Assembly: GCA_030265395.1 (NCBI GenBank)
Contig: JARFYF010000063.1
Location: forward strand, 89,112,410-89,176,409
Length of the DNA: 64,000 bases
Direction: 5' to 3'
Origin: Rhina ancylostomus
Lineage: Eukaryota
A model generated the notes under the pieces. It did not search any database, was not told the origin of the DNA, and saw nothing but the letters and a program-made list of their open reading frames with translations. This document shows, piece after piece, positions 33,052 through 33,075 of this stretch. Positions within the stretch are counted from its first letter, which is position 1. The number at the start of each line of letters is the position of its first letter. The translations under genes and the position numbers were made by a program.

Positions 33052-33075
33052 TCAAACAAAACTGCCGAGTCTCAT
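33052..33075 (-). CDS. uORF MRLGSFV* in the MEIS1 5' leader
   Basis: Reads aaagccATG AGA CTC GGC AGT TTT GTT TGA. It is the only upstream ATG between 32771 and 33150. Confidence 0.6.
   Translation of the reverse strand: MRLGSFV

Follow-up and report, generated by a model that had tools for sequence, protein, structure and literature searches.

A seven-codon upstream open reading frame (uORF) in the 5′ leader of MEIS1 of Rhina ancylostomus is, on sequence comparison, older than the split between MEIS1 and MEIS2. It lies at the 3′ end of a block of 93 nt that is common to the leaders of both genes. Our reading, which we mildly favour, is that this block does two jobs: it would serve as a PBX-MEIS/PREP site in the DNA and, beside that autoregulatory site, as a uORF that dampens translation independently of the sequence it encodes. 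That dampening uORFs are common in transcription-factor mRNAs is already known, and the decamer of mouse Meis1 as well as the human MEIS2 ORFs have been published; new are a very old MEIS1 uORF that is kin to that of MEIS2 and the correction of a 'de novo' label. Coordinates without prefix refer to the window, the whole 64,000-nt stretch of Rhina DNA that was analysed, in which the features of Table 1 were located; the prefixes L002 and L006 denote the loci of the MEIS2 and the MEIS3-like gene.

Table 1. Features of the MEIS1 locus in window coordinates
Feature	Position	Strand	Remarks
MEIS1 exon 2, coding stretch	32268..32495	minus	3′ edge accurate to about 1 base
Coding part of MEIS1 exon 1 (MAQR) with the start codon	32759..32770	minus	C at −3, G at +4
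MEIS1 5′ leader, transcribed, unspliced, ATG-depleted	32771..33350	minus	RNA reads; 5′ end of some molecules beyond 33350
Match of the mouse Meis1 reverse ChIP primer	33047..33065	minus	uORF codons 4-7, stop and 5 nt beyond
uORF MRLGSFV*, 7 codons	33052..33075	minus	reading-frame scan; frame differs from that of the MEIS1 coding sequence
93-nt block common to the MEIS2 leader	33055..33147	minus	−72 to +20 around the uATG
TGGC-N5-GCCA palindrome	33075..33087	.	final base doubles as the A of the uATG
PBX-MEIS/PREP decamer TGATTGACAG	33094..33103	minus	19-28 nt upstream of the uATG
Second MEIS1/MEIS2 block	33364..33398	minus	32/35 nt identical to L002:1206-1240; 322 nt upstream

The uORF within the transcribed MEIS1 leader

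The gene had been named MEIS1 from its letters alone, and this name is upheld by exon 2, which matches two lamniform-shark Meis1 records without a difference and mammalian Meis1 at 87% identity. The MEIS1 ATG at 32770 opens a first exon of four codons that is spliced to exon 2, as seen from RNA reads whose ends at 32759 join exon 2 (4 reads of run X21, 8 reads of run X22, and also X12). Three MEIS paralogues were found in the Rhina genome in a search with exon 2, and at all three start codons (32768-32773; L002:1893-1899; L006:8774-8780) position −3 is C and position +4 is G, a common context that is, judged by its letters, less than optimal. The uAUG has a purine at −3, which is better at that position than the C of the main AUG.

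The sequence-only reading, which had left the strand unstated, was right about the frame MRLGSFV*: it is a real seven-codon frame that is read on the minus strand from 33075 to 33052. Its start lies in the gccATG context that had been claimed; the wider context is aaagccATGa, in which position −3 is a purine and position +4 an A. The distance from its stop to the MEIS1 ATG at 32770, given as about 280 nt, was counted as 281 nt. The uORF had further been described as the sole upstream AUG in a leader of about 380 nt. Indeed, no other sense ATG occurs between 33396 and 32771, but the leader measures at least 580 nt, and longer transcripts may include a second conserved ATG at 33397, in which case the uORF would no longer be single. 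Between 33072 and 32771 the reading-frame scan found no ATG and hence no second inhibitory uORF or uORF overlapping the coding sequence. Sense RNA reads of organisms A and D have no changed letters listed in the 24 nt of the uORF, which is a weak sign, since D has 9 changes in 330 nt and the chance of none in 24 nt is about 0.5.

Reads of four out of 23 RNA runs (X5, X12, X21 and X22) were placed on 32600-33350 only. In X22, a stranded run of a close relative with 51 reads of 150 nt, sense depth is 7-18 from the exon 1 donor through 33350 and no joints occur; because this depth is unbroken, the leader comprises at least 580 nt. The X22 reads show no cluster of starts, and 9 of the 51 extend past 33350. 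Run X21 (14 reads) covers the uORF and fades by 33275, a contig of X12 spans 32989-33318, and X5 has no records on 32600-33350. By continuous depth, with no single read bridging the whole span, the uORF lies within the spliced MEIS1 mRNA of the close relative; in the reads examined the transcription start is not downstream of 33075. The length is consistent with the leader of about 650 nt in mouse Meis1 (PMC3538684), and in human MEIS1 the coding sequence starts at 733 after a leader of 732 nt (PMC10908861). On the opposite strand, X22 depth climbs to 3-4 at 33250-33350, possibly from an antisense or divergent transcript or from library leak. A TA repeat in the leader (32955-32985) has another length in organisms A and D than in the window.

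The 580-nt leader contains 1 ATG where 10.0 are expected, and none of 2000 dinucleotide shuffles had so few. All 2000 shuffles contained at least one ATG, so the presence of a uORF alone is what chance would give. The antisense control CAT occurs 12 times (10.8 expected), and ATG is undepleted in intron 1 (4 vs 2.7 expected) and further upstream (10 vs 13.2). The MEIS2 leader also has 1 ATG where 5.0 are expected (P 0.019), and this surviving ATG sits at the same place as in MEIS1. We favour a dampening role of the uORF because all ATGs but one have been purged and both paralogues retain the one at the corresponding position. A uORF that is only tolerated as a passenger of a DNA element fits this pattern less well: where the other ATGs were purged from both leaders, a neutral AUG in a fair context should cost.

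Kinship with the MEIS2 leader and age of the uORF

A genome search with 33040-33160 returned one other place, at L002, with 91% identity over 91 nt (E 3.9e-28), and a MEIS2-type start codon follows 325 nt downstream of this match. Within the block, the two paralogues share 65/72 positions upstream of the uATG, 3/3 of the ATG itself and 15/18 of codons 2-7; over the further 38 nt upstream of the block, only 7/38 are identical. In L002, the gccATG opens a uORF of 16 codons, MRDDSFVTSGLLTGRS* (L002:1571-1621, G000:C1). A uORF of human MEIS2 known from Ribo-seq, c15riboseqorf11, reads MKHDSSVTCGLLTGRS* and also has 16 codons (PMC10032668). Compared by eye, the uORF of Rhina MEIS2 has the same start register and the same length as c15riboseqorf11 and shares 12/16 residues with it. 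The catalogue entry classes this human ORF as primate-young and de novo (PMC10032668), a label that is contradicted by the Rhina copy and looks wrong. The most likely cause, as suggested by the methods described in PMC10032668, is that ORFs as short as this one are beyond the reach of the age score. Being older than the shark-mammal split, c15riboseqorf11 would be a concrete false positive for age calls on short ORFs. The MEIS1 uORF and c15riboseqorf11 start in one register of this block, but the MEIS1 uORF stops at codon 8 and is absent from that catalogue; in the six supplementary files of Sandmann 2023 (PMC10032668) there are 0 rows for MEIS1.

The comparison of MEIS1 with a mammal was made possible by the reverse ChIP primer for mouse Meis1 printed in PMC2707216. 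Its best place in the whole window is on the uORF, where 15/19 bases agree, as against 9/19 in the same register of L002. In the frame of the uORF the mouse primer reads S-W-V-stop with the TGA in register, and the 5 nt past the stop are identical in mouse and Rhina. The 3′ half of the human MEIS1 uORF, which the sequence-only reading had given as S-W-V-stop, is thereby supported in mouse (PMC2707216). Each of the two genes has kept the position of its stop since sharks and mammals parted, at 7 codons in MEIS1 (mouse primer) and at 16 codons in MEIS2. A start that is common to both genes together with an own stop kept in each would place the origin of the uORF before the MEIS1/MEIS2 duplication. 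The earlier description as 'ancient' was therefore an understatement, with start and frame common to the MEIS2 paralogue and human MEIS2 and the stop kept to mouse Meis1. Gene conversion between the Rhina paralogues was considered and rejected, as the two genes lie on different contigs and each matches the stop of its own mammalian orthologue. In intron 2 of MEIS2, L002:2948-3091 looks like the start of a tRNA-derived SINE.

Possible translation of the uORF and its putative peptide

A translational-control element is a plausible reading of the MEIS1 uORF. The uAUG, with its purine at −3, would divert part of the scanning ribosomes, which would terminate after seven codons; a share of them would resume scanning over 281 nt and reinitiate at the MEIS1 AUG, and leaky scanning would supply the remaining MEIS1 output. 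This output would be lowered whatever the peptide, and the dampening could be fixed or dependent on conditions. Beside the purge of ATGs, we count in favour of dampening that the stop is kept in mouse, that the uORF lies inside the mRNA and that the human MEIS2 counterpart c15riboseqorf11 is catalogued as translated (PMC10032668); vertebrate uORFs are generally repressive (PMC4890304). The short MEIS1 uORF is absent from the table of Ji 2015 (PMC4739776), where the MEIS1 entry is a dORF only, and from the matches listed for Yang 2024 (PMC10908861), among which MEIS1 has a CTG uORF only. Loss of Denr in NIH3T3 cells left translation efficiency unchanged (log2FC 0.05, p 0.56 for Meis1; −0.05, p 0.65 for Meis2; PMC6547434), so that DENR-aided reinitiation is unsupported. 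Our search of the openly accessible literature found no published account of the MEIS1 uORF or of its kinship with MEIS2.

In delayed-reinitiation leaders such as those of ATF4 and GCN4, a short uORF that permits reinitiation is followed by an inhibitory uORF downstream. The layout of the ATF4 leader is given in PMC4739776; unlike these leaders, that of MEIS1 has no inhibitory or overlapping uORF between the short uORF and the MEIS1 AUG. With the vertebrate uORFs of Chew 2016 (PMC4890304), which repress independently of their sequence, the MEIS1 candidate shares a short frame starting with AUG, a purine at −3, a long gap to the coding sequence and a transcription-factor mRNA. It differs from them in being common to two ohnologues and in overlapping a DNA element, and its repression is presumed. 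The ESUCA set of conserved-peptide uORFs (Takahashi 2020, PMC7530721) includes a MEIS2 uORF, but that uORF is reported there to lack a sequence-dependent effect, and the C-terminal half that is conserved has no counterpart in the MEIS1 ORF.

The sequence-only reading had also proposed a micropeptide. A functional peptide with the core M-R/K-x-x-S-x-V, acting in cis through conditional ribosome stalling or in trans, would account for S5 and V7, which are kept in Rhina MEIS1, mouse Meis1, Rhina MEIS2 and human MEIS2, and for M1 and a basic residue 2, which are kept in the three sequences that cover these positions. The uORFs of Rhina MEIS1 and Rhina MEIS2 have 5/7 residues in common, the MEIS2 uORFs of Rhina and human end in the same 7 residues, and 2 of the 4 differences between Rhina and mouse in the primer span are synonymous. 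The one codon changed in this span turns F to W, which speaks against such a peptide, as do the 7 vs 16 codons of the paralogues, length and C-terminus being kept only within each gene. All 3 paralogue changes in codons 2-7 are non-synonymous and fall on codon positions 1-2 (L/D, G/D), a count (0/3 synonymous, P 0.44-0.58) that is not significant. Moreover, seven residues barely reach into the ribosome exit tunnel. For human c15riboseqorf11, the catalogue gives a PhyloCSF score of −25.44 in mammals and 0 MS studies (PMC10032668), and a MEIS2 uORF with a conserved peptide, possibly a different one from c15riboseqorf11, was among the 9 of 17 without frameshift effect in HEK293T cells (PMC7530721). 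The micropeptide is thus not supported, and we regard a functional peptide from the MEIS1 uORF, in cis or in trans, as unlikely.

MEIS2 is dosage-sensitive. MEIS1 has been tied to leukaemia and restless legs syndrome (PMC11584712, PMC2707216). Given these ties and the dosage sensitivity of MEIS2, a conserved translational brake, if true, would be a place in which to seek 5′ UTR variants.

DNA elements of the block and the MEIS3-like gene

By treating the uORF alone, the earlier reading missed that it edges a larger block with a PBX-MEIS/PREP core that is occupied in mouse. The decamer occurs only once in the 64-kb window and is kept 10/10 in the MEIS2 leader (L002:1543). An identical decamer is found in the PBX-MEIS site of mouse Meis1 (PMC2707216) and in the DECA sites of PMC6023610, which defines the PBX-PREP/MEIS DECA motif and describes a nearby CCAAT (NF-Y) box as a feature of such sites. 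In P19 cells, ChIP found the mouse amplicon over the decamer site occupied by MEIS1, PBX1 and TORC2, and occupancy was higher with forskolin (PMC2707216). The mouse ChIP site is the same element, because the reverse primer falls on the uORF itself and the primer pair flanks the decamer. It is called a promoter site in mouse (PMC2707216), whereas in Rhina it is inside the transcribed leader, and the passages on these sites in PMC2707216 and PMC6023610 mention neither a uORF nor a MEIS2 twin. MEIS peaks have been reported at the human MEIS1 and MEIS2 promoters (PMC11584712). Neither MEIS1 nor MEIS2 altered the mRNA of the other in human neural stem cells (PMC11584712), which weakens the feedback side of our reading. 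By analogy with mouse, the block likely acts in Rhina as a TALE-factor DNA site just inside the transcribed region, and such a PBX-MEIS/PREP site can explain in large part the conservation of the block without any ORF.

The TGGC-N5-GCCA palindrome is the only copy at that spacing in 64 kb; it is present in MEIS2 and absent from the MEIS3-like gene. The gccA that appears as the 'Kozak' of the uATG is its right arm. We take the palindrome to resemble an NFI site, a similarity spotted after the fact; the flanks of the full TTGGC-N5-GCCAA consensus are absent, with G and T in their place in both paralogues. At the 5′ edge of the block, a ATCATCATTCATTCA run (33130-33147, minus strand) recurs unchanged in MEIS2 and in part in the MEIS3-like gene; its other strand presumably resembles PBX-HOX sites.

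The block could thus be a DNA element only, composed of the PBX-MEIS/PREP site and the NFI-like palindrome just downstream of the promoter, with the uORF as a tolerated passenger; we consider this possible but clearly less probable than the double role. Retention of the uORF for DNA reasons alone is possible because the ATG belongs to a nearly invariant stretch of 75 nt and coincides in part with the palindrome, and the 5 nt after the stop are kept too. Conservation upstream of the uATG that is no lower than in codons 2-7, the membership of gccA in the palindrome and the published occupancy in mouse (PMC2707216) all agree with it. The palindrome explains the A of the ATG but not the TG, and a passenger leaves unexplained both the stop position kept per gene and a human MEIS2 ORF that is called translated (PMC10032668).

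A caution against reading conservation as coding comes from the second block. The ATG at 33397 opens an ORF of 37 codons that ends at 33284; the corresponding ORF has 30 codons in Rhina MEIS2 and 37 codons in human MEIS2 (c15norep17), whose first 10 residues are identical to those of Rhina MEIS2. The second block of MEIS2 matches the human Ribo-seq uORFs c15norep17 and c15riboseqorf12 in two overlapping frames (10/10 and 14/15 residues). Because both frames match simultaneously, base-level constraint here imitates peptide conservation, a point that again suits the DNA-only explanation. The second block, which contains what we take to be an ETS-like core, may be a promoter core, a first uORF or both. 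The locus is a clean test case for telling constraint on ORFs from constraint on DNA in hyperconserved leaders.

We judge it very unlikely that the block is an RNA structure or a platform for RNA-binding proteins in the leader. It is transcribed, and two MEIS genes are among the homeobox genes with hyperconserved 5′ UTR elements for which PMC7484617 proposes RNA-binding-protein sites. The letters of the palindrome also fold as a 5-bp hairpin over the AUG in both paralogues, but these are the same letters as in the DNA palindrome and they show no covariation. Folding z-scores of four stretches (+1.65, −0.29, −0.01 and −0.69) give no unusually stable fold, and Rfam had no match for the block at E up to 1.

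A more far-reaching form of the double role would be that the block has, since the vertebrate genome duplications, coupled transcriptional PBX-MEIS feedback to a uORF that senses conditions and gates translation through the short peptide core common to both genes. We find this unlikely. If true, the coupled element would set the dosage of a TALE factor at two levels, as a rheostat, and its variants would be MEIS dosage alleles.

An eroded copy of the block lies in the leader of the MEIS3-like gene (L006:8424-8500, G000:C69), equally far from the start of that gene. Homology with the MEIS2 block is good, its score being reached by 0/2000 shuffles and 1/412 real tiles, and homology with the MEIS1 block is borderline (21/1000 shuffles and 31/412 real tiles). 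The copy keeps the ATCATT stretch, TGACA and 9/10 of the decamer and has lost the uORF ATG. This loss counts against dampening, and TALE-type motifs retained without a uORF ATG are what a pure DNA element would leave. The single base changed in the MEIS3-like decamer gives rise to an ATG at 8460, which has a strong context and opens a frame of 21 codons; two more ATGs follow downstream.
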